Assembly (NCBI GenBank): GCA_964347045.1
Contig: CAYFXC010000013.1
Location: 46,420-58,206, forward strand
DNA from: an uncultured archaeon
GTDB taxonomy: Archaea > Asgardarchaeota > Hermodarchaeia > Hermodarchaeales > Hermodarchaeaceae
DNA: 11,787 nt
Direction: 5' to 3'
Both the position numbers and the translations under genes were made by a program. This document shows, in pieces, positions 1,014 to 11,787 of the stretch (position 1 is its first letter; each line of letters starts with the position of its first letter). Under the pieces are notes generated by a model. It had not been told where the DNA came from. It did no database searches and was given only the letters and a program-made list of their open reading frames with translations.

Positions 1014-1982
1014 TTAGAATTCAACATGGTGATTGGATACTTGCACCCCTACCAACTCGGCTAGGCGAAGGTAGCCGGGGCCAACAAAAAATTTTTGCGG
1101 GCGCACAATTTCCGACCCCACTCGCTTGGCGAATTCCACCTTTTTCGTCTTGGTAGTAATGGCTTCAATCGTTTGGAGATCTTTTGCCGTACAAAAATGT
1201 ATTAAAGTGGGTCTGTTAGCGAACAACCAGGTATTCCAGTACTCAAATGGATTTTGTTCCATCACCCATTTAGTAACTTCCTGAGGAGACGCCTTCGTTT
1301 CATCAAAATCAATGTAGAGATTAAAAGGGATTACACCACCAGCACTCATCTTGGTAAAGATACTGAAATACAATCCACCCCCCTTTATGAGATCTCGAAG
1401 CACCTGTCGCACTCGTCGTGAAGTGAGATTAATCTCTTTGGCAATCTCTGTAGCAGGAATCCGCGCATCCTCTAATAAGTAACGGAGAACCTGCAATTGG
1501 GACGTGGTGAAGCTGACTTTATTACCCCGATAGGCATACTGAGAACCAAAGAGTAAGGGCGTGGGCGTTACCGGATATATGAAATCAATCACCACTTCCT
1601 TCACAGACATCAACCCCCGAAGGAAGCGTCCCAACTCAAACAGCCCCACTGGACCAACGACTTGCGCAAGCACAATGATTTTCCGAGGGTCAATCCGCAA
1701 GACTATTACCACCGAAGGGTGAGTGCCGATCAGATCGAAGAAGGCTTCATCCTGTTCCGTCCCATCCGTAGTCAATTCGGCAAGGCAATAGTCTGCATCC
1801 CTCATTGCTAAAGATAACAGCACATAGGGCCGACTCAGAAACCCTACCTCCCGGAGCAGGGTCACACGCTTTTTTACACTCGTCGCCGTCAACCCCAGTT
1901 TCTTTGCAATACCTCGATACGTTGCCCGACAATTAACATAGAGCTCAATCAAGATACCCTTATCCACCATATCCAGAACCAA
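1014..1982 (-). CDS. Tandem (double) Lrp/AsnC-type winged-helix transcriptional regulator
   Basis: Two HTH modules (DKGILIELYVNCRATYRGIAKKLGLTATSVKKRV and QLQVLRYLLEDARIPATEIAKEINLTSRRVRQVL), each followed by a RAM-like alpha/beta region. TTG start with GAGGGTG upstream. Confidence 0.85.
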   Translation of the reverse strand: MVLDMVDKGILIELYVNCRATYRGIAKKLGLTATSVKKRVTLLREVGFLSRPYVLLSLAMRDADYCLAELTTDGTEQDEAFFDLIGTHPSVVIVLRIDPRKIIVLAQVVGPVGLFELGRFLRGLMSVKEVVIDFIYPVTPTPLLFGSQYAYRGNKVSFTTSQLQVLRYLLEDARIPATEIAKEINLTSRRVRQVLRDLIKGGGLYFSIFTKMSAGGVIPFNLYIDFDETKASPQEVTKWVMEQNPFEYWNTWLFANRPTLIHFCTAKDLQTIEAITTKTKKVEFAKRVGSEIVRPQKFFVGPGYLRLAELVGVQVSNHHVEF

Positions 1983-2073
1983 TCAAAGCACCCTCGACGC
2001 CACCTACTATACTTCCAACTCCGTAAAATACCTCACGGAAAACTCCCCGCATCCCCACTCAACCACTAGACAT

Positions 2074-2105
2074 AAAAAAAGAGAGAAAAGGGAGGCAGGC
2101 CTCCC
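2074..2105 (-). terminator. Hairpin plus poly-T terminator after actin-tail copy A
   Basis: The minus strand reads GGGAGG-cctg-CCTCCC-ttttctctcttttttt. Confidence 0.7.
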
Positions 2106-2119
2106 AGAAGACCAAGCGT

Positions 2120-2176
2120 TTAGAAGCACCGATGGATAACTCCAGCACCCTGCTCCATGGATTCTTTCTTCGTCAA
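2120..2176 (-). repeat. Actin-like 3'-end remnant, copy A (LTKKESMEQGAGVIHRCF*)
   Basis: Hand translation, stop TAA at 2120-2122. The frame is closed upstream by a TGA near 2222, so it is not the end of a long gene. Confidence 0.8.
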
Positions 2177-2306
2177 CGAAATCGCGGCATCCTCTTTTTT
2201 CCGAATTAATACCTCATATTTTCAACTGGATGACAAGACTTCACGTATAAAAAGCGAAACTTATCCTAACCTAGCCCAGAGGGTTATCTAAGAACCAATT
2301 TGAACT

Positions 2307-3512
2307 TCAAACGCGAATTTCTTCACCTACCCTCAATTGATGATAGGTGGCCCCAAAGCTTTCGTGAAACATTCTGAAACTGAGTGGCGAACTATCATGT
2401 GGTGATAAGGCAACAATCTTCAGTTGTTGTTGTTTCAAAAGAGCAATATTAGCTTGCAATTCACTCTTTGTGATACGTTCCCATGGCAGTTTTCCTGTCC
2501 CAAAATACGAATAGGGGCTCATTCCTGCAATTTCAATTGGACCGCCTTCAACAGGGTAATGGAGTCCGCCAATTATACCATAAATCGGCTCATCAAATAG
2601 CGCTGCAGCCCGGTCAAGAAGTTTTGGTAAGCGCTGGTGCCCACACCCTACTATTAGTACAATGCCCTTATTTTCCACATTAACTGCTAGTGCCTGTTCG
2701 TATTCTATCCCGGAACTTAAGAAAAACATCGCATTCGCTATGCTCCCAATGGTCGCAACACCTGTTCCGACTACTATTGGGTCTTTTGCATGAATTGGCT
2801 CTATTCCAGGATACTTCATCGGCACAGGAGTGTACACTGTGATATGTGATAAGTCAAGTTGTGTGCCACTCAGTGAAAACGTCATCTTTTCTGTCCATTT
2901 GATTCCCCCAGTATGATCCCCATGATTGTGCGAAATCACAATCGTATCAATGCTACTAACTTTGACACCCAACTGCTTCATATTCTGTAAGAGTGGCGAC
3001 GGGTCTTCCTGCAGTGGATTCAATCCCAAATCAAACAAAATCGTGTTCTCATCCGTCTGGATCAGATACGACACACCAAGTTCCTTCTTCAAATTGTCCC
3101 GACTTGTATGCCAATCAATCAACGGTAAAATCGACAGATGCTCAGTTGTGCCGATATCTGTTAACTTGGAGTACGTGCTCTGCTCCCATTCCTTCAATGC
3201 CAGCCGTTCCCCCTGGTGAAACTTCTTCAATTCTTTCTTAAGCTTCTTATCTTCAAATAAATACCGAAGGGTAACCTTAACTCCGATTTTAAAAAAGGGT
3301 GCCAAAAACTCTTCAATGACCGCTCGTGGAGGAATAATTGTTTCACCCAGTTCAAAGACGACACAACTAGTGATACCATGGACCGGTTCAGGCATCGACG
3401 ACGGAGGAACAATGAATTTGATCTCTTTCCTCGTAGAAACGCGCTCCTTCCACGAGTTAATATAATCTTCCAACTCTGCTGGAGGAACTTCAACCAACGC
3501 GATATACCGCAT
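2307..3512 (-). CDS. MBL-fold metallo-hydrolase (DHPS-like/MJ0301-type subgroup) with an N-terminal extension
   Basis: GVSYLI...ILFDLG, ISHNHGDHTGG (HxHxDH), EQAL, GCGH, IIGGLH and PHD motifs. Confidence 0.85.
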   Translation of the reverse strand: MRYIALVEVPPAELEDYINSWKERVSTRKEIKFIVPPSSMPEPVHGITSCVVFELGETIIPPRAVIEEFLAPFFKIGVKVTLRYLFEDKKLKKELKKFHQGERLALKEWEQSTYSKLTDIGTTEHLSILPLIDWHTSRDNLKKELGVSYLIQTDENTILFDLGLNPLQEDPSPLLQNMKQLGVKVSSIDTIVISHNHGDHTGGIKWTEKMTFSLSGTQLDLSHITVYTPVPMKYPGIEPIHAKDPIVVGTGVATIGSIANAMFFLSSGIEYEQALAVNVENKGIVLIVGCGHQRLPKLLDRAAALFDEPIYGIIGGLHYPVEGGPIEIAGMSPYSYFGTGKLPWERITKSELQANIALLKQQQLKIVALSPHDSSPLSFRMFHESFGATYHQLRVGEEIRV

Positions 3513-3687
3513 AACTCATCCCAGTAAGATGTTACCACGGTGGATAAAAAAAATTCCAGCTCCAAAACAGTTCGTTCGCTTCTACACCAACGGAGTAACT
3601 ATCACCTACTTTTCATTTAAAGATATGAAAAGCTCAAAAAAGAGAGAAAGAAGGAGACACCTCTTTAGAAAAAGAAAAAACAGCCTC

Positions 3688-3746
3688 TTACAAGCATCGA
3701 TGAAAAACGCTAGTGCCCTGCCCAGATATTCCTTTTTTATAGACAC
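3688..3746 (-). repeat. Actin-like 3'-end remnant, copy B (VSIKKEYL/fs/QGTSVFHRCL*)
   Basis: The minus strand reads gtg tct ata aaa aag gaa tat ctg g-g cag ggc act agc gtt ttt cat cga tgc ttg taa, with a 1-nt deletion in the Glu codon. An imperfect hairpin and ctctctttttt follow at 3636-3666. Confidence 0.75.
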
Positions 3747-3799
3747 GGGTTTGATTCATAAGGTAAAATTGAAAAGTAATGTGAACAGAGGTTGGATTT

Positions 3800-4060
3800 A
3801 TGTCCGAACAAGCAATAAAAACACCGGTTGGAAAGGTCACTAACTATTACTCAAAAATCAATGTAGCCGTCATTGAATTATCCGCCCCTTTGAAAAAGGG
3901 TGAGGAAATCGCCATAAAGGGCGCAACTACGGACTTCACGCAAACAGTGGAATCCATGCAAATTGAACGCGAAGCCATTGAATCCGCACAATCTGGTCAG
4001 GCTATCGGTTTAAAAGTCAAGGATCGGGTTCGGATAGGCGATACCGTTTATCGGATATAG
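3800..4060 (+). CDS. Small beta-barrel protein (U32 peptidase C-terminal domain / translation-factor domain II-like)
   Basis: VGKVTNYYSKINVAVIEL...LKKGEEIAIKG.TTDFTQTVESMQIE...A..GQ.IGLKV..RVR.GD.VY pattern, with a GAGGT RBS. Confidence 0.8.
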   Translation: MSEQAIKTPVGKVTNYYSKINVAVIELSAPLKKGEEIAIKGATTDFTQTVESMQIEREAIESAQSGQAIGLKVKDRVRIGDTVYRI

Positions 4061-4088
4061 TGAAATTAACTTATTGGAGGAACCTTTC

Positions 4089-4607
4089 ATGGATGCCCTT
4101 GAAGCCATCATCACTCGTACATCAATCCGTAATTTCACCAGCGACCCTGTTTCAGATGAGCAAATCGAAACGCTATTAAAAGCCATGATTGCGGCGCCCA
4201 GTGGAGGCAACAAGCAACCGTGGCGCATCTTCGTGATCCGAAACACTACTATCAAACACCAATTAGCCAAAGGAGCCGGGAACCAAGATTTTGTCGCAAA
4301 GGCACCAGTCGTTTTCGTTGTTTGCCGCGTGCCAGATGAATCCGGTGAGCGCTATGGCAACCGTGGTCGCAATCTCTACTCCATCCAAGACACCGCGGCA
4401 ATGACGCAAAACCTACTCCTTGCCGCACATGCAATAGGATTGGGAGGATGCTGGGTGGGAGCGTTCAAAGAAGCCGCCATTGCTATGGCTATCAATACCC
4501 CGATTAGCGTCATCCCCGTTGCCATCATCCCCATCGGAAAACCTGCAATTCCCAGAACACCCCGAGGTCGAAGACCATTGGACCAGATAGTCCAATTTCT
4601 CGATTAA
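4089..4607 (+). CDS. Nitroreductase family flavoprotein
   Basis: RTSIRNF, APSGGNKQPW and QNLLLAAHAIGLGGCWVG motifs. Start moved to ATG 4089 because GGAGG at 4076-4080 is the likely RBS. Confidence 0.92.
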   Translation: MDALEAIITRTSIRNFTSDPVSDEQIETLLKAMIAAPSGGNKQPWRIFVIRNTTIKHQLAKGAGNQDFVAKAPVVFVVCRVPDESGERYGNRGRNLYSIQDTAAMTQNLLLAAHAIGLGGCWVGAFKEAAIAMAINTPISVIPVAIIPIGKPAIPRTPRGRRPLDQIVQFLD

Positions 4608-4972
4608 CATTAGATAACTACCACAGCCTGCCTCCCATGTTCTCTCATTCCAACTTGGTGTGCTGGCCCTACCTATTACGTTAATACACTCATGTCGACT
4701 CTCGTTACAAGAATAAACGACATCCCTATGCCCCTGAAGAAAAACACCAGAAACCCCAACAGGGGCTCATAAATTAAACCTGAACTAAACATATGGTCCA
4801 TTGCATCACGAATGGCAATTTCGGCATTAACAATTCTATGAAAATAAGACAAGCATATGTAGAAACCCATCCTCTCATTAAACGAAGAACTTTTTTTGCC
4901 AATTGGCTACTACCTCCTTCTTGGCCAGCGCCAATACAAATCCACCTTTCGCACAAAGGAGGACGCTCTAGT

Positions 4973-5779
4973 ATGGATGAATATTATGAAGCGAACAAAC
5001 GCCGATGGAACGAGCTGGTAGAGATTCATGCCAATTCAGCAGAATACGATTTGGACGGATTCTTAGCCGGAAATACAAGCCTTCACCAAGTGGAACTCAA
5101 CGCCCTGGGCGATGTTACAGACAAGAGCCTGCTACACCTGCAATGCCACTTTGGACTCGATACCCTCAGTTGGGCCCGGTTGGGTGCTAAGGTGACAGGT
5201 GTCGACTTCAGCGAGACTGCAATTGAACTAGCCAAAAAACTGGCTAAACGAGTTGGTCAAGAGGCGACCTTCATTTGCTGCAACCTCTATGATCTCCCAA
5301 ACATCCATACGGACCAATACGACATCGTCTTCACCAGCTTTGGCGTCCTCTGCTGGCTCCAGGATGTTGATACTTGGGGGCGTATCATCGCCCAGTACCT
5401 GAATCCAAGGGGCATCTTCCTTCTAGTAGAATCCCATCCCATCGTACACATTTTCGACGACGACCACCCCACGCAACTGAAAATCAAATACCCCTATTGG
5501 CACACGACCGAACCGCTAAGCTACGATTTCGATGGCACCTACGTTGAGAGCGCCCAGAAACTCACCAATACTCGTGGCTACGAATGGCACCACACCATCA
5601 GCGACATCCTCAATGCCCTACTACGCGCTGGGCTAACTATCCTTGAAATCCACGAATACCCTCACCTTCCCTGGAAACCCTTCCCCTTTGCACAAAAAAC
5701 CCACAAAGAAGAATGGCGACTAGATGGTGACCCCCTACCATTATGCTGGAGCATAAAAGCTACCCAACAAGACAGATAA
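4973..5779 (+). CDS. Class I SAM-dependent methyltransferase
   Basis: LLHLQCHFGLDTLSWARLGAKVTGVDFS motif I/II and YDIVFTSFGVLCWL. The likely start is MDEYYEAN at 4973, after GGAGGA. Confidence 0.9.
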   Translation: MDEYYEANKRRWNELVEIHANSAEYDLDGFLAGNTSLHQVELNALGDVTDKSLLHLQCHFGLDTLSWARLGAKVTGVDFSETAIELAKKLAKRVGQEATFICCNLYDLPNIHTDQYDIVFTSFGVLCWLQDVDTWGRIIAQYLNPRGIFLLVESHPIVHIFDDDHPTQLKIKYPYWHTTEPLSYDFDGTYVESAQKLTNTRGYEWHHTISDILNALLRAGLTILEIHEYPHLPWKPFPFAQKTHKEEWRLDGDPLPLCWSIKATQQDR

Positions 5780-5832
5780 AACGCAAAACAGAAAAGATAG
5801 ACATTAACCTCTAAGGGAACAACCAAGACCCA

Positions 5833-5939
5833 TTAGAAGAACCAATGGATAACGCTAGCACCCTGCTCCCCATATTCCTTCCAGCTTACACCAATGGCTT
5901 TTTAAAAGAAATAAAAATGCGAATGCTATTATGAATCCA
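5833..5939 (-). repeat. Actin-like 3'-end remnant, copy D (longest): WIHNSI...F../fs/..VSWKEYGEQGASVIHWFF*
   Basis: Stop at 5833-5835 and KEYGEQGASVIH at 5845-5880. A WIxxSI motif in another frame starts 62 nt upstream of the KEY Glu codon (63 nt expected from actin WIGGSI). There is an in-frame stop at 5902-5904. Confidence 0.8.
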
Positions 5940-5959
5940 AGTATTGTCGGTGAAACCTA

Positions 5960-6355
5960 ATGAAGCAAAGTAAAGGAAGAATAACACGTCTTTGGCTCGG
6001 TATGGTCGAAGTATCAAATTTAGACCAAGCACTCCAATTTTACCATGAGGTTCTTGGCCTACCGATTGCACTCGACGCCAGAATGTTTGACCATGCCGAA
6101 GTTGGCCCCGAAGAACCGTTAGCAAAAATCGGGATACACGCCACGGGCAAAAAGGTAGAAAAAATACGCCCAACTGGCCTTGTCTTCGATACAGATGACA
6201 TCAACGCCCTTTACGAAAGGCTAACCCTACACAGAGTAAAATTCACCATGAAACCAACCAAAATGCCATGGGGAGGCATCTCCGCAAAATTCCTTGACCC
6301 TGACAACAACGAGTTCGAGGTTGTGCAAGACCCCAATCATTACTCACGAAAATAA
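5960..6355 (+). CDS. VOC (glyoxalase/bleomycin-resistance) family protein
   Basis: VSNLDQALQFYHEVLGL ... FDTDDI ... MPWGG...FLDPDNNEFEV motifs. Confidence 0.9.
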   Translation: MKQSKGRITRLWLGMVEVSNLDQALQFYHEVLGLPIALDARMFDHAEVGPEEPLAKIGIHATGKKVEKIRPTGLVFDTDDINALYERLTLHRVKFTMKPTKMPWGGISAKFLDPDNNEFEVVQDPNHYSRK

Positions 6356-6362
6356 AATCACC

Positions 6363-6393
6363 AAAAAAGAGAGAGGAGGTGTTTTCCACCTCC
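6363..6393 (-). terminator. Hairpin plus poly-T terminator between convergent genes
   Basis: The minus strand reads AGGAGGTG-gaaaa-CACCTCCT-ctctctttttt, the same style as the terminator after copy A. Confidence 0.7.
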
Positions 6394-6414
6394 TTCATTT
6401 GACTGAGAAAATGG

Positions 6415-6963
6415 TTACAGCCAATTAGGCGGAACCCACTCAATATCTCCTTCAAAGATTTCATCCGGTATGGGATCTGGATTATCCCATCCAAAGGCGA
6501 TGTCGTAGTGACCAACAGCTTGCGGGGGAATATAGTAGCGAAATATAATGTAGTAAAAGATTATTCCGTCACCCCAATCTTCACAGATGATTTCGTCGAA
6601 CCGCCAACAATCGGCCATATTAATTTCCTCACCATTAAAGAAGAATTCGAGATCCCAGGCTTCGAGGAATATGATTTCAGCTACAATTCTTTGCTCGAGT
6701 TCACTTTCATGGACAATGTCAGCCCAGCCGAAGCCAATCGTCAGCCATGTCCCAACCTTTATTTGCCCGCTAAAGAGCTCAGGAACCCAAGGTACATAGT
6801 AGTAACCTCGCGTGAACAAGAAAGGCTCATTAGAATGAATATTCGCATTGATCTTTTGGATTCCGTGTCCGTTGGGGAACGTCGCAATGGTCTGTGGAAT
6901 TAATGCGAATACTAGTACACTGGCAAAAAGGAGTAGAGGAAGAATAGCTTTACTTCTTTGCAT
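6415..6963 (-). CDS. Secreted hypothetical protein (acidic, aromatic-rich)
   Basis: ATG 6963 follows GGAGGG (6974-6979). Signal-peptide-like MQRSKAILPLLLFASVLVFALIPQTIA. No family recognised. Confidence 0.75.
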   Translation of the reverse strand: MQRSKAILPLLLFASVLVFALIPQTIATFPNGHGIQKINANIHSNEPFLFTRGYYYVPWVPELFSGQIKVGTWLTIGFGWADIVHESELEQRIVAEIIFLEAWDLEFFFNGEEINMADCWRFDEIICEDWGDGIIFYYIIFRYYIPPQAVGHYDIAFGWDNPDPIPDEIFEGDIEWVPPNWL

Positions 6964-7088
6964 TATAGACCTACCCTCCACATTTATTCGCTGATTTCTC
7001 AGCGATCACCCAGAATAAATGCCGGTGGGATATAACACCGCTATCAAATTCACCATGATAACACTATCTAAAAAAACAAAAGGTCACA

Positions 7089-7129
7089 TTCGAAGGCACC
7101 GGTGAATCACGCCAGCGCCTTAACATATT
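7089..7129 (-). repeat. Actin-like 3'-end remnant, copy E (*GAGVIHRC/fs/F)
   Basis: The minus strand reads taa ggc gct ggc gtg att cac cgg tgc c ttc gaa: Gln codon mutated to TAA, a 1-nt insertion and a lost stop. A poly-T tract follows at about 7070-7076. It lies directly after the protease stop codon. Confidence 0.75.
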
Positions 7130-9853
7130 TCAGTTATTCATTGAGGCTTTCGTGCTTGTCCCGCTAGCTAAAGTGGCAACTGTCAAATTCGATGAAACTG
7201 ATGAAATTGAGGGGTATCGAGAGAGAAATTCAAGGTATTCGATTAAATCATCGATCTTCATGCAAAGCTCTTGTTGTGCCTCTGGATTTATGATCCAGTC
7301 GTTCTGGGGTTTTCCATCAACTTGACCATCCATCTTTCCACGGATATTGTGTCGCAAGTCTTCTAGGGCACAGCGATATACCTTGTTGTCCAGCATTTTT
7401 GCAATTGCTCGAAACATGTTGTTGAACGCGTTCTTTCGTTGTGTTGGATTATTTTTGAATGCGTTGTCGGGCAGAGCTTGAATGAGCTGGTTGATATCGA
7501 AGAGGGCGTCATTGGCGGTATTTACTGTGACCTGTATCGTAAGAGATACTGAACTGCCATCATCGTCTGTGATTGTTACTGTCACCGTATAGGTTCCAGG
7601 ATACGCAAATGCGTGTTCGGTTAGTGCGGTTCCGGTTGCATCGGGTTCAAGGTTCTCTTCGGTGATAATTCCAAGTACTACTATTCCGTCGCCAAAATCC
7701 CATGTTGCTGTGTGAACATCTAACCAGCCAGGGTCAGAGAAGCTGACAGTGAATGCTAATGTATGGACTATTGGGAGAATAAATTGGGGATTTGGCTGAG
7801 TCAAATCAACAGGTGTAGTCATCGTGGGGGCTACATTGAACACTGTGACAAGCAGTTCATTTGTTCCAACTCCACCATCATCGTCGGTCACCGTAAGAAT
7901 CACTGTATACACACCATTGTCTCCAAACGTATGCGTGGGTGTTAACGTCCCAGAGACAATAGGAGACCCATCTCCAAAGTTCCACTCAATAGTATGAGTG
8001 TCAAGAATGCCGGGGTCAGTGAAACTCCCCATAAAGACCACTTCAGCGCCCTCATCGGCATCCTGATCTGGCCCCGCATCCACCAAGGGAGCCACATTGC
8101 TAACAATCACGATGATTGTTCCTGTACCTATTCCTCCATCGTCATCAACTACAGTCAAGATGACAGTGTAAACACCATTTTCAAGATAGATATGCGTGGG
8201 TGTTAACGTCCCAGAGACAATAGGAGACCCATCTCCAAAGTTCCACTCAATAGTATGAGTGTCAAGAATGCCGGGATCCCAGAATTCACCAGAGAAGGCG
8301 ACGGTGTCACCTTCATCAACTGTTTGATCTACGCCTGCATTTACTATAGGTGCCCCATTCAGCACGGTCACTGTCGTTGAGTACGTATCTGTTGATCCAT
8401 CATCATCAGTGACAGTCAAGGTCACAAGGTAAGTTCCATCCTCAACAAATGTGTATGTTGGATGTTGAACTGTGCTAGTACCAACATTATCGCCAAAGTT
8501 CCAACTCCAAGCCACAATATCATCAAAAGATGAGACAGAAAGGTCATGAAAAGAAATCACATAACCCTCAACCGGAGTGAAGGGATTCCAATTAAAATCA
8601 GCTGTAGGATGATGGTCAAGAACCGTAACTTGAATCGTATCTGTTCCTACATCACCATGTTCATCAGTAACCGACAGAGTGACGGTATACACTCCGTTCT
8701 CGGGAAAGACATGGGAGGGTTTTAATGTTCCAGTCACACTGGGTGTACCGTCGCCAAAGTCCCATGCATAGGAATGTCTCCAACGTTCTCCAGGATTAGA
8801 GAAATTTCCATTGAAATATACTCTGCTTCCTTCAAGTACACCGGTTTGATCTGCGCCTGCATCTACTTTCGGCGGAATACCCGGACCTGCACCTAATGCA
8901 TAGATTCTTTCAATGTGCCACTTTCGGATATTCAGAAATGAGTAATTCCTGATGTGCCATTTACCACCAGACTTGTACACTTCATAGTACTGCAATTTGT
9001 TAGGAAATTCATGAGCATCACGCCAAGGACGAAACATATCATAATTCTTGTTATCATCGGAGTCAGTAATCCAGATTCCTTTGTAATATCTAGAATCGGA
9101 TTTTGGATACGAAGTATCATAATTGAACCCCCAGCAAGTGATAGCATGTCCTCGACGCGTCCCCCAGATATTTGTGTAGGATATACTTAATCCAATTCCA
9201 TATCCAGCTCGCAAGAACTTATCAATCGCCGGTAAGATATTACTCTCATCATCTGCAGATTCAAAATAGGCCAGGTATTCCCATGTTGACCAGAAGTTAC
9301 CGCCGCCTGCAACATTAACAGATGCGAAACTAGAATCGGGGACTATTTCTGTGCCGTCAAACCACCAATTGTAGGCATATCTCGTAGAACCTGCTTTATC
9401 GGTCCAATGGTCCTGAAAATGGGCGAATATCTCATCTGTGTTATCCATTCCACCGACCAAACCCCAACCGGTCCACTCTAAGACATTAGAAGCAGTTGCC
9501 GCCCAGCACAAATCATCATCATCGCGATCCCAGAATGCCTTTTCAGCATCGCACCAATTCCGAACACCACTATAGTCGACATCAATCCTGTATCGAGTGC
9601 CACTGGGAGCAGCAGCTGTCACAGGAAAAAGATCCTCATAACCGATTTTTACACGTGCAGTATGTTCAGCAGCACTGTTCTCAGTGCTAAAAATAGAATC
9701 CGAGGATTCGTTACGAACACCATCGGCTAGATAACCAGCAGCAGTGTTTACGATATGAGAAGGCACATCGACCACCGTGACCAAGCCTAACGCCGACACC
9801 AATACCGCCACAAAAACCAGTCTTTTCAAGCTTCGGACTTTTCTAAAATTCAA
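7130..9853 (-). CDS. Secreted IdeS/Mac (peptidase C66)-like cysteine protease with five PKD domains and a helical C-terminal domain
   Basis: Signal-like N-terminus. DAEK...DDDLCWAATASNVLEW (Cys116), HAITCWG (His236) and IWITDSDD (Asp264/266) parallel the IdeS motifs DDLLCGAATAGNMLHW, HVINLWG and IYVTDSD. Five W[DN]FGD / GxYxVxLxVxD repeats. TTG start with a GGGAGGG RBS. Confidence 0.85.
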   Translation of the reverse strand: MNFRKVRSLKRLVFVAVLVSALGLVTVVDVPSHIVNTAAGYLADGVRNESSDSIFSTENSAAEHTARVKIGYEDLFPVTAAAPSGTRYRIDVDYSGVRNWCDAEKAFWDRDDDDLCWAATASNVLEWTGWGLVGGMDNTDEIFAHFQDHWTDKAGSTRYAYNWWFDGTEIVPDSSFASVNVAGGGNFWSTWEYLAYFESADDESNILPAIDKFLRAGYGIGLSISYTNIWGTRRGHAITCWGFNYDTSYPKSDSRYYKGIWITDSDDNKNYDMFRPWRDAHEFPNKLQYYEVYKSGGKWHIRNYSFLNIRKWHIERIYALGAGPGIPPKVDAGADQTGVLEGSRVYFNGNFSNPGERWRHSYAWDFGDGTPSVTGTLKPSHVFPENGVYTVTLSVTDEHGDVGTDTIQVTVLDHHPTADFNWNPFTPVEGYVISFHDLSVSSFDDIVAWSWNFGDNVGTSTVQHPTYTFVEDGTYLVTLTVTDDDGSTDTYSTTVTVLNGAPIVNAGVDQTVDEGDTVAFSGEFWDPGILDTHTIEWNFGDGSPIVSGTLTPTHIYLENGVYTVILTVVDDDGGIGTGTIIVIVSNVAPLVDAGPDQDADEGAEVVFMGSFTDPGILDTHTIEWNFGDGSPIVSGTLTPTHTFGDNGVYTVILTVTDDDGGVGTNELLVTVFNVAPTMTTPVDLTQPNPQFILPIVHTLAFTVSFSDPGWLDVHTATWDFGDGIVVLGIITEENLEPDATGTALTEHAFAYPGTYTVTVTITDDDGSSVSLTIQVTVNTANDALFDINQLIQALPDNAFKNNPTQRKNAFNNMFRAIAKMLDNKVYRCALEDLRHNIRGKMDGQVDGKPQNDWIINPEAQQELCMKIDDLIEYLEFLSRYPSISSVSSNLTVATLASGTSTKASMNN
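7930..8275. repeat. Exact 85-bp direct repeat between PKD domains 3 and 4 (7930-8014 and 8191-8275)
   Basis: Identical tatgcgtgggtgttaacg...caagaatgccggg at a 261-nt offset, encoding PGILDTHTIEWNFGDGSPIVSGTLTPTH. Confidence 0.95.
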
Positions 9854-10166
9854 CTCTTTCCCTCCCTTCGAGGTACTCCAATCGGGTCTCCAATAGCCAC
9901 GCCATTTCCCAGACCTTCATTAATTGGCAAAACGGTAATGGAATCCGACACGAATCCATCGGAAAGGGTCGGCTCCATTGCCATTCTGACCATAAACAAC
10001 TAACTCGCCTAATGTTGCATAAAAATATTAGGACCCTTTTTTTGAATCGAAAACAGTAAAGAAAGTGTTAAAGATGACCCGACTTATTGTAAATAGAAAA
10101 ATCGAAAAAAACTGCTAATTACTCCATTCAAAGAAAACTGAACAAAAAATCCCTGATGTAAAACAT

Positions 10167-10190
10167 AAAAAAGGGAAGAACACGCCTCCC
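10167..10190 (-). terminator. Hairpin plus poly-T terminator after actin-tail copy F
   Basis: The minus strand reads GGGAGG-cgtgtt-CTTCCC-tttttt (one G-U pair). Confidence 0.65.
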
Positions 10191-10204
10191 AACAAACAGC
10201 CACT

Positions 10205-10240
10205 TTAGAAGCAGAGATAGATCACGTCAGCGCCTTGTTC
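10205..10240 (-). repeat. Actin-like 3'-end remnant, copy F (EQGADVIYLCF*)
   Basis: The minus strand reads gaa caa ggc gct gac gtg atc tat ctc tgc ttc taa. D, Y and L are each one substitution away from G, H and R codons. Confidence 0.75.
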
Positions 10241-10262
10241 ATGAACAAAGTTAGCCGAGTCT

Positions 10263-10587
10263 TCAAGGTTCCTTACCCTCCATTTCGGCACTTCCCGCTC
10301 CAAAGGAAAGGGGTGGCAATGGGTTTTTTTGGACAACGGATGTGGAGTGGTAGGATTTTGTTACCCTGAAGACCCAGCTTTGGTCAATGTCCAAGATCTG
10401 TGTCCTTCGTGTGTTTGTTCGGATTCCCAAGTTGTAAGCGTGCTTAGTGTCGTGAGGTGACGACGGCGAAATTGATTCGATCACGGGAAGTACCTCGTGG
10501 GTTTTTGGCTCCTGTCACAGCACGTTCAGCGACGGTCATTTCGCCAACTTTCTTCTGTGTGTGTCTGGTTTCTTTCTTACCAGCCAT
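10263..10587 (-). pseudogene. Small ORF (10444-10587, 47 aa) or frameshifted hypothetical gene
   Basis: Strong RBS GGAGGGTGAT before ATG 10587 (MAGKKETRHTQKKVGEMTVAERAVTGAK...). Removing one A from the AAAAA run at 10502-10506 joins it to the 10263..10484 frame. Confidence 0.45.
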
Positions 10588-11140
10588 TTTTTATCACCCT
10601 CCAATTGTGAGGACAACCTCCACCAGATGCAAGATGGCAGACGGTGACATATAAGCTGGCGTGAAGTCACAGATTTACAAAAGTACACAGCATTATAAGA
10701 CGGGAAACCAGAATGTCAACCTAGTAACCGCCCCTTGTGTTCGAACCAGTGAGCACATTCGAACTGAATCCAACCTCACTGTGTTTTGGCATGAGGGTTA
10801 GATTGGCTGAATAATTGTTCCCAAAAGCAATACAGTAAAATTAGAACACTCATTTTTGCGGACTTGATCCTTTGATACGGTGAGGAGCTTATGATATGCC
10901 TTAAGTAAATCTGAGTACTCCACATTCAGACCTCCAATTGCACGTAAAACTCAGTTTCCCAGCAATAACGCTGTGTAAGTAGCTGAGGTTCTGGTACAGA
11001 AGTATTTCAATAGCCTTGAACAACTCAATGCCTAAAAAGCTCAGAAATCGATTCAAATAATACAGTTTGTAGACCGATAGGTTCCCAAAGTGGAATACTC
11101 GTATTTTCCATAAATTTCGAACTTTGCTTCCATTGAGTAG

Positions 11141-11787
11141 TTACAGGCCGGCTTCAGTGAGTAGCTCTTCAAGGCGGAGATGGGACAGCCCCTTATAAAG
11201 CCGCACTTGCAACCGGATGAGAATATCCACATCCTTAGCCCAAGGTGCTACCTTAACAAGCCTTGCGATTGGTTCAACCCACCGAAATTGTTCCATAACA
11301 AAATATGCCCACAGGACAGGTTCTTCGACGATTAGATTTGAATGGGAATAAGAATAGAAGCATTTCTCAGCAAGCCATTCTTCAATTTCAGCTAATTCAG
11401 CGACACTTTCACGCAGGTGAATGCGAAGAATTAAACAATACCAACCTGATGGTTGATGTAATGTTCGGATTGTGAAATGCACCGCACCACTCTCATAGAG
11501 TTCCTTGAGGAGTTTCCGAACCGTTTTTGCCGATAGCTTCGATTGCCGAGCAATCTGAGGGACTGGCATCCGCGCATCGATGGTCAAGCAGCGCAATACC
11601 CGCAGCTGATTATGAGAAAAGGTCGCTTTCTGGCCATATCTAAAAATCTTACTAAGTGGGTTTATTACGATTGCTGGAAATAATAAGGTTGAGAGTTTCA
11701 CCTTTGTGACGCCTTCAAGCCCCCGGAGAAAGTTACCTAGCTCGTAGCGACCCTGCGAACCTACAACCTCACACTCTGCAAGATAGT
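11141..11787 (-). CDS. Second tandem Lrp/AsnC-type regulator, 5' part beyond the right edge
   Basis: The frame is open to the edge. YLAECEVVGSQGRYELGNFLRGLEGVTKV aligns with VLAQVVGPVGLFELGRFLRGLMSVKEV of 1014..1982. The second HTH is QLRVLRCLTIDARMPVPQIARQSKLSAKTVRKLL. Confidence 0.85.
   Translation of the reverse strand, partial: YLAECEVVGSQGRYELGNFLRGLEGVTKVKLSTLLFPAIVINPLSKIFRYGQKATFSHNQLRVLRCLTIDARMPVPQIARQSKLSAKTVRKLLKELYESGAVHFTIRTLHQPSGWYCLILRIHLRESVAELAEIEEWLAEKCFYSYSHSNLIVEEPVLWAYFVMEQFRWVEPIARLVKVAPWAKDVDILIRLQVRLYKGLSHLRLEELLTEAGL

Follow-up and report, generated by a model that had tools for sequence, protein, structure and literature searches.

Stranded actin gene ends and accessory-gene cassettes behind the actin gene of a Hermodarchaeota archaeon

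Tail units in the window and the actin locus

The stretch of DNA analyzed here (the window) comprises 11,787 nt of contig C13 (C13:46420-58206) from the genome bin of an uncultured Hermodarchaeota archaeon (2.58 Mb in 83 contigs; genome G000), and carries, among accessory genes, repeated copies of the 3' end of an actin gene, hereafter called tails. Searching with a degenerate codon pattern of GAGVIHRC, we recovered five minus-strand sites (2126, 3694, 5839, 7096, and 10211), against 0.03 expected, and each site closes a reading frame similar to ...KKEYMEQGAGVIHRCF-stop. Behind the stop, four copies have a short 3' untranslated region (3'UTR), a GGGAGGC/GCCTCCC hairpin, and a T-run. The tail unit, whose borders were set by a profile built from the window copies, spans about 120 nt and includes the last 20 actin codons, the 3'UTR, and the terminator hairpin. 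A first-pass annotation of the sequence had lettered the copies from A to F, implying six; the window holds five, and no copy 'C' was recovered by the profile search, even at E = 100.

Tail A (2061..2182, minus strand; profile E = 1e-32) is a complete unit, with actin codons 362-381, a stop at 2120-2122, 3'UTR, hairpin GGGAGGCCTGCCTCCC, and T-run, and it differs from the resident tail, i.e., the one that completes the working actin gene, at 9/20 third positions and 3/40 other positions. The superimposed lesions described in the annotation are real, since Tails B and F have each lost one nucleotide, and Tail E carries a 1-nt insertion together with a nonsense change (CAA-to-TAA). Tail B (3630..3749, minus strand; E = 4.5e-21; stop at 3688-3690) is decayed, with a degenerate hairpin, and its positional relatives in the genomes G011 and G003 adjoin the same 86-amino acid (aa) cargo gene. 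Tail E (7075..7121, minus strand; E = 1.5e-7) is a fragment restricted to GAGVIHRC and its surroundings, without hairpin, and Tail F (10144..10265, minus strand; E = 6.6e-21; stop at 10205-10207) retains the hairpin and has GAA CAA GGC in common with the resident tail. Tail D (5770..5896, minus strand; E = 2e-21; stop at 5833-5835) is 5'-truncated, beginning at tail position 16, and its hairpin is decayed; G008 and G013 share with it both the truncation point and the glyoxalase cargo. An extension of Tail D further into actin was considered and found no support (upstream 120 nt no better than shuffles, z = 0.5), the upstream actin likeness of its orthologues in G013 and G008 being marginal (z = 3.1-3.5). 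Moreover, no orphan tested (profile start at or before position 30) reaches upstream of codon 362, and the 5' border of the orphans falls at ATG TGG, two codons without silent alternatives.

G000 has one complete actin gene (C30:2903-4048; Pfam Actin, E = 1.8e-134; 381 aa), and its C-terminus is exactly the peptide encoded by the window tails. The approximately 18 tail units of this genome, all co-oriented with actin, are confined to one locus, being distributed between C30, where they follow actin, and the minus strand of C13. Both contigs can be considered as parts of one locus, for three reasons. C30 breaks off after 77 codons of a double winged-helix gene, and C13 ends in the final 214 codons of such a gene; a congener has a single 69-kb contig on which actin, the first-slot genes described below, C30-like and C13-like cassettes, and a flank syntenic with C13:30-34 kb occur together; and, in the sister genus (G016), only about 2 kb part actin from homologues of C13:26.5-28.3 kb. 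Judged from this synteny, the array represents an accretion of at least 25 kb with tail units, inside at least 40 kb that part actin from its ancestral neighbor.

The codon signal of the tails

The first-pass annotation had proposed that the copies differ at silent sites, having evolved under protein-level selection in functional genes. Its codon readings are exact: on the minus strand, GAGVIHRC is GGT GCT GGA GTT ATC CAT CGG TGC in Tail A (2126-2149) and GGC GCT GGC GTG ATT CAC CGG TGC in Tail E (7096-7119), with five differences, all of them third-position and silent; EQGA is GAG CAG GGT GCT in Tails A and D and GAA CAA GGC GCT in Tail F; and the sharing of codons between E and F, and between B and D, is as it was stated. 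The formal third-position count, which the annotation had named as the check that might refute it, revealed an excess at window, genome, and genus level. With each alignment column counted once, minor-allele cells at codon positions 1/2/3 were 11/8/21 in the five window tails, 24/19/72 in 15 tails of G000, and 126/98/392 across the genus (66 tails, ten genomes). Position 3 had a higher entropy than positions 1 and 2 in the window (p = 0.0175), the genome (p = 5e-6), and the genus (p = 1e-7), p-values that are indicative only, because the tails are related, not independent, and because heavily decayed tails, much changed at positions 1 and 2, are more easily missed. Within the EQGAGVIHRCF block of the window tails, 9/11 third-position columns vary, against 9/21 others (Fisher p = 0.039). 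When compared with the resident tail, the 14 orphans of G000 presented 24, 17, and 101 differing sites at codon positions 1, 2, and 3, and only 18-23% of random single-base changes in the tail sequence would be silent.

RNA structure, the other explanation that the annotation had raised against itself, was ruled out by RNAalifold on 26 tails, which detected only the terminator hairpin and no conserved or compensatory pairing in the coding part. A weak GU-rich helix in the coding part was rejected as a cause of the silent pattern, since eight of its nine pairs show no double-sided change, the ninth does so in a single sequence, and its covariation term is -1.05. The variation of the tails is a codon signal, not an RNA signal. 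Furthermore, when the first stranded tails of four species are compared, most differences are at third positions (5/3/14 at positions 1/2/3), as expected if each was the former working tail of its lineage, and Tail D, inherited with its glyoxalase cargo in three species, decays without codon periodicity (6/4/3).

A third-position excess alone needs no import, because duplication in place, where the orphan changes everywhere and the resident only silently, gives a per-site excess of third-position over other differences of up to about 2:1. Against this null, T02 differs from the resident tail at 11/20 third positions and 0/38 others (p = 6.5e-4), T03 at 10/20 and 0/40 (p = 1e-3), and T07 at 12/20 and 0/39 (p = 2.8e-4), followed by T15 (p = 0.02) and Tail A (p = 0.07). 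For the first stranded tail, T01, the differences were 4/15 and 3/30. In-place duplication plus decay is rejected by T02, T03, and T07; since these tails are barely decayed, yet differ at about 55% of silent sites, either they or the resident must derive from a long-separated working allele. The distribution of differences supports the view that most tail divergence accrued while the tails were coding sequence.

Along the array, tails farther from actin are neither more distant at silent sites nor more decayed, and array order is not age order. In addition, two distinct and unrelated 3'UTR types, both of them found among resident tails of different species and among G000 orphans, alternate along the array. 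The nearest working tails were those of G005 for T02, T03, and T06, of G013 for Tail D, of G011 for T08 and T15, and of G000 for Tails E and F, an assignment that is descriptive only and weak as to donors, with about 10-20 informative sites per tail. Any donors would lie within the genus, because all intact tails encode the genus-specific peptide. The silent-site pattern indicates that the tails were once working actin ends of different alleles.

The first-slot gene and the cargo cassettes

The resident tail (C30:3985-4110) completes the 381-aa actin, and only 4 nt past its terminator lies, on the opposite strand, a gene encoding a 377-aa protein (C30:4114-5247, minus strand). Beyond it come a gene of 147 aa (L001:5244-5687), for which no family or Atlas match was found, and then the stranded tail T01 (C30:5781-5822). 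This block occupies the first slot next to actin in G004, G005, G008, and G013, and a stranded tail stands behind it in G000, G013, G008, and G005. An apparent common breakpoint at position ~47 of the first stranded tail was discarded, being merely the truncation point of the G000 copy.

The family of the 377-aa protein has only 14 detectable homologues. Two motifs, LTDGxAG (D128) and MSxEG (E255), contain acidic residues that are invariant across 12 homologues and that are placed, in the AlphaFold model (predicted local-distance difference test, 84.8), at the ends of helices 114-128 and 241-255. In this model the double alpha-beta-beta-alpha-beta-beta-alpha fold was recognized, the top 50 matches of Foldseek against PDB were all LAGLIDADG proteins, and VIA-align yielded Z 12.5 to the archaeal intron endonuclease I-Tsp061I (root-mean-square deviation 3.5, 187 aligned), with a structural Z of ~10 to I-DmoI. 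The modeled structure indicates that the 377-aa protein is a LAGLIDADG-fold, homing-endonuclease-like protein; its gene is under purifying selection, as denoted by a ratio of nonsynonymous to synonymous divergence of 0.15-0.17. C-terminal stumps of this gene were detected directly beside orphan tails in G004, G008, and G005, and the tail at the G004 stump has a UTR and hairpin near-identical to those of the resident, yet differs at eight third positions. In the sister genus, contig C23 of G016 presents one tail, no orphans, no match to the endonuclease-like protein, and core genes about 2 kb downstream, a configuration that corresponds, at sequence level, to an empty site. Between G000 and G013 (L036), synonymous divergence (dS) is 0.26 for the 147-aa gene and 1.0 for the adjoining endonuclease gene, and this disparity points to a recombination breakpoint inside the first-slot block.

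Cassettes shared between species keep their orientation, with a permuted order. Their dS between species was 0.45-0.95 for the glyoxalase, 86-aa gene, metallo-beta-lactamase, regulator, hydrolase, and DDAH cassettes, against 1.4-2.2 or saturation for eight core genes upstream of actin; two distal cassettes reached 1.4 and 3.0. The glyoxalase gene with Tail D occupies slot 2 in G008 and G013 and approximately slot 12 in G000 (dS 0.45-0.55). Judged from these divergences, the locus is a mosaic that exchanges DNA between species, and some tails travel with their cargo.

Within the window, a metallo-beta-lactamase-fold gene (2307..3512, minus strand; Pfam PF00753) is located between Tails B and A, and its orthologue in G013, with 84% nucleotide identity (dS 0.51), stands between other tails. 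Three genes lie antisense to the tails between Tails D and B (3800..5779, plus strand), coding for an 86-aa EF-Tu-domain-2-like protein, a nitroreductase, and a methyltransferase, the first of them being common to four congeners (dS 0.47-0.57). Between Tails E and D are two genes, one for the glyoxalase (5960-6355, plus strand) and one for a 188-aa protein with no assigned family (6415-6981, minus strand). Tails F and E enclose a gene for a 907-aa secreted protein with five PKD domains (7130..9853, minus strand) and an N-terminal region of ~330 aa without Pfam match. A gene resembling double winged-helix (AsnC-type) regulators follows Tail A (1014..1982, minus strand), and at 11141..11785 (minus strand) the contig end interrupts another double winged-helix gene, of which the C-terminal two thirds remain; its N-terminal part is at the end of C30. 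Of the ~15 genomic paralogues of this type (320-370 aa, AsnC-type helix-turn-helix), six are placed in the actin array, including those on C30 at 8722-9720, 10809-11921, 13661-14656, and 15753-15986; the array members start 45-100 nt after a tail terminator, and their mutual identity is only 25-33%. Another cassette on C30 encodes a 273-aa protein (L001:9874-10695, minus strand) with DUF4332 and helix-hairpin-helix motifs, no catalytic domain, and a weak match (XerA-like, E ~0.01) to the N-terminal SAM-like domain of tyrosine recombinases.

The segment at 10266-11140 of the window comprises ~900 nt without an open reading frame (ORF) of at least 75 aa, and within it 10621-10826 is 84% identical to part of the G011 array (L041:8985-9190); this region is possibly the remnant of a gene, or else a non-coding RNA. 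A 30-nt element, CCCTCCAATTNTGAGGA...CCACCAG on the plus strand, occurs at 810-839 and 10597-10626, in copies 90% identical that sit just upstream of two unrelated minus-strand ORFs and overlap a GGAGG box; it matches the 'CCCTCCAATTG' element on the same contig.

Further peculiarities concern the actin genes of relatives. In G011 (contig C32; 3' part at L041:11815-11990), the actin frame is broken by two short inserts, of which one, of 28 nt after ...IVAPP, folds into a helix / 3-nt bulge / 4-bp helix / 3-nt bulge arrangement like that of a tRNA-type intron, and the other, of 30 nt, coincides with the tail border (codon 362/363) and has a short CAGCG.A..TGG duplication on its flanks; this gene is either spliced or broken. 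In G016 (contig C23; L045:3216-3243), the frame is interrupted after codon 48 by a 28-nt insertion that may be another mini-intron.

A proposed tail-replacing endonuclease, its alternatives, and its significance

In our reading, the window copies are probably former working actin 3' ends, derived from several alleles of the genus and stranded behind the gene by a tail-replacing homing endonuclease. The enzyme would cut susceptible actin alleles near codons 362-363 (ATG TGG, which is not silently recodable), and repair of the break would copy a new tail, its terminator, and the endonuclease gene from a donor; with the actin body as left homology and the old tail as right homology, the previous tail would be pushed downstream. 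Repeated rounds would stack tails and cargo genes, and recombination among the co-oriented tails, within and between species, may shuffle both. A broader version, in which a homing endonuclease acting on ATG-TGG would be the motor of an integron-like gene capture, with tail recombination stacking, shuffling, and exchanging cassettes between species and actin serving as the fixed dock, is advanced only tentatively, and we hold it to be somewhat doubtful. Regarding the successive imports that the first-pass annotation had proposed, each replacing the resident tail, the idea is partly supported, namely by the recoded undecayed orphans, the UTR types, the endonuclease gene, its stumps, the empty site, and the low cassette dS. 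Not supported is that each tail was a separate replacement in G000, since Tails B, D, E, and F taken singly fit in-place duplication, Tail D was inherited with its cargo, and there is no age order along the array.

Several observations weigh against this reading. Most cassettes are ordinary cargo without a nuclease gene, whose capture the model leaves unexplained, and no endonuclease stump was found beside any G000 orphan. The 377-aa protein has no Pfam, NCBIfam, or PHROG match at E <= 0.01, and its top structural match is WhiA, a non-nuclease regulator (Z 13.6). The endonuclease block looks long-resident and not freshly invading, because its dS between species is 0.7-1.0. Window Tails B, D, E, and F are singly compatible with in-place duplication (p = 0.4-0.6), hence the annotation's dismissal of local duplication plus decay is upheld for T02, T03, and T07 and not for these four taken one by one. 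Resident tails have 25-35% of codons silently changed between species, against 21-23% in the actin body, and an elevated silent divergence of resident tails was rejected because this difference is not significant. Finally, some doubt attaches to which resident tail belongs with the array of the window, because a second 5' version of actin is present in the bin (C24:3-398 vs. C30:2903-3300), with identical protein, 13 silent differences, all in codons 88-132, and upstream genes only 76% identical; the two versions represent either two populations in one bin or a true second locus.

Among other explanations, it is conceivable, albeit unlikely, that tail and terminator together are the site of some site-specific recombinase, as in integrons, the codon periodicity being only a relic of the actin origin. 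The sharp common 5' border of the orphans, the small cassettes (0.8-3 kb), and their single orientation relative to the tails, with an order permuted between congeners, would agree with such a site. However, ORF scans with Pfam and NCBIfam detected no recombinase in or beside the array, apart from the weak SAM-like domain at C30:9874-10695, and cargo is present on both strands. Moreover, a recombination site should be constrained everywhere, whereas the undecayed orphans differ only silently, and the stumps beside orphans suit a nuclease history. Attachment scars of a tyrosine integrase, considered as a candidate, were likewise downgraded to a rival, with no integrase in the array ORFs scanned (C30 and window).

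Slightly less probable still is duplication in place without import, where orphans would be snapshots of the resident over time, perhaps through selection-filtered gene conversion. Purifying selection on a tail that is copied serially would also leave an excess at third positions; singly, Tails B, D, E, and F fit the 2:1 null, and resident tails are no more diverged between species than the actin body. This explanation is nevertheless opposed by T02, T03, and T07, undecayed at 38-40 non-silent sites while 50-60% of third positions differ from the resident; by silent distance and decay that do not rise away from actin; by the alternation of UTR types; by cassette dS far below core dS; and by the actin body, which is itself mosaic, with silent changes clustered (runs z = -4.7 and -6.0). 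Retention of the orphans by a present-day function, such as terminators of cassette genes or landing pads, instead of a recent origin, seems the least likely of these alternatives, even if hairpin and T-run are the best-conserved non-coding part, double winged-helix genes begin 45-100 nt past a tail terminator, and some distal orphans (A, T15, and T07) are very well preserved. A terminator needs neither 60 coding nucleotides nor codon periodicity; orphans bear frameshifts and nonsense changes and have no in-frame start codon, and Tail D decays evenly at the three codon positions in three species.

The tail-replacing endonuclease that we favor has its nearest counterpart in fungal mitochondria, where mobile endonuclease ORFs (mORFs) carry the foreign C-terminus of a gene, as reported for atp6 of Allomyces macrogynus and for atp6, atp9, cox2, and nad3 of Glomus (PMC3630166). 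In those cases, a LAGLIDADG ORF brings a foreign C-terminus and strands the native one, with one duplication per gene, and the carried and native copies, alike in protein and diverged in nucleotides, were taken to denote horizontal origin (PMC3630166). The actin locus is similar in that a conserved gene has a LAGLIDADG-type gene at its 3' end, with a carried C-terminus that keeps the host gene whole, a former C-terminus stranded downstream of the endonuclease gene, the same protein with diverged nucleotides in T02, T03, and T07 vs. the resident tail, and a relative with an empty site (G016). It differs in being an archaeal chromosome with actin as host gene, in the convergent position of the endonuclease gene behind a terminator, with no in-frame fusion, and in its ~18 stacked tails, with unrelated cargo between them and cassettes shuffled and exchanged between species. 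In the literature searched, we found no published description of tail-replacing endonuclease elements at an archaeal chromosomal gene or at actin, nor of the present system.

Three further systems share some of these features. In tandem integrative islands at the 3' ends of tRNA and tmRNA genes, every successive element rebuilds the end of its target gene, and the displaced partial copies stay behind as direct repeats; these islands are far larger, and each has, or formerly had, its own tyrosine integrase gene. At actin the 3' end is likewise restored and displaced partial copies remain as direct repeats; unlike these islands, no integrase or remnant was seen in the array ORFs scanned, and the target is protein-coding. 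The endonuclease genes of T-even phages are intergenic, spread by break repair, and co-convert flanking markers, with target differences protecting the carrier. As in those phages, whose free-standing homing endonucleases include the Seg and Mob proteins (reviewed in PMC2988022), the gene described here stands free between genes, and in the proposed mechanism it would spread similarly, with recoding of the target as a putative source of immunity. The phage enzymes, however, are GIY-YIG and HNH proteins, whereas the present one is of the LAGLIDADG type, and they neither duplicate gene ends nor build arrays. With chromosomal integrons and CALINs, the array has in common small accessory-gene cassettes, one co-oriented repeat, a fixed anchor, and a content and order that vary between close relatives. 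Unlike integrons, it shows no IntI-type recombinase (array ORF scans) and no attC-like imperfect palindrome, the repeat being a codon-periodic coding tail with an ordinary GC hairpin and T-run, and the cargo lying on both strands.

In brief, elements that replace gene tails by means of an endonuclease have been published in fungal mitochondria as single events, and here many rounds of this process would have taken place at the actin gene of an Asgard archaeon, a member of the closest known relatives of eukaryotes. The silent-site pattern makes the stack a readable record, in which accessory genes separate the former gene ends, and this pattern, together with the low dS of the cassettes, shows the region behind actin to be a hotspot of interspecies gene flow. 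If the endonuclease is active, the locus would represent a novel, simple way of accreting cassettes that needs no integrase, as well as a natural example of selection on the silent sites of an essential gene.

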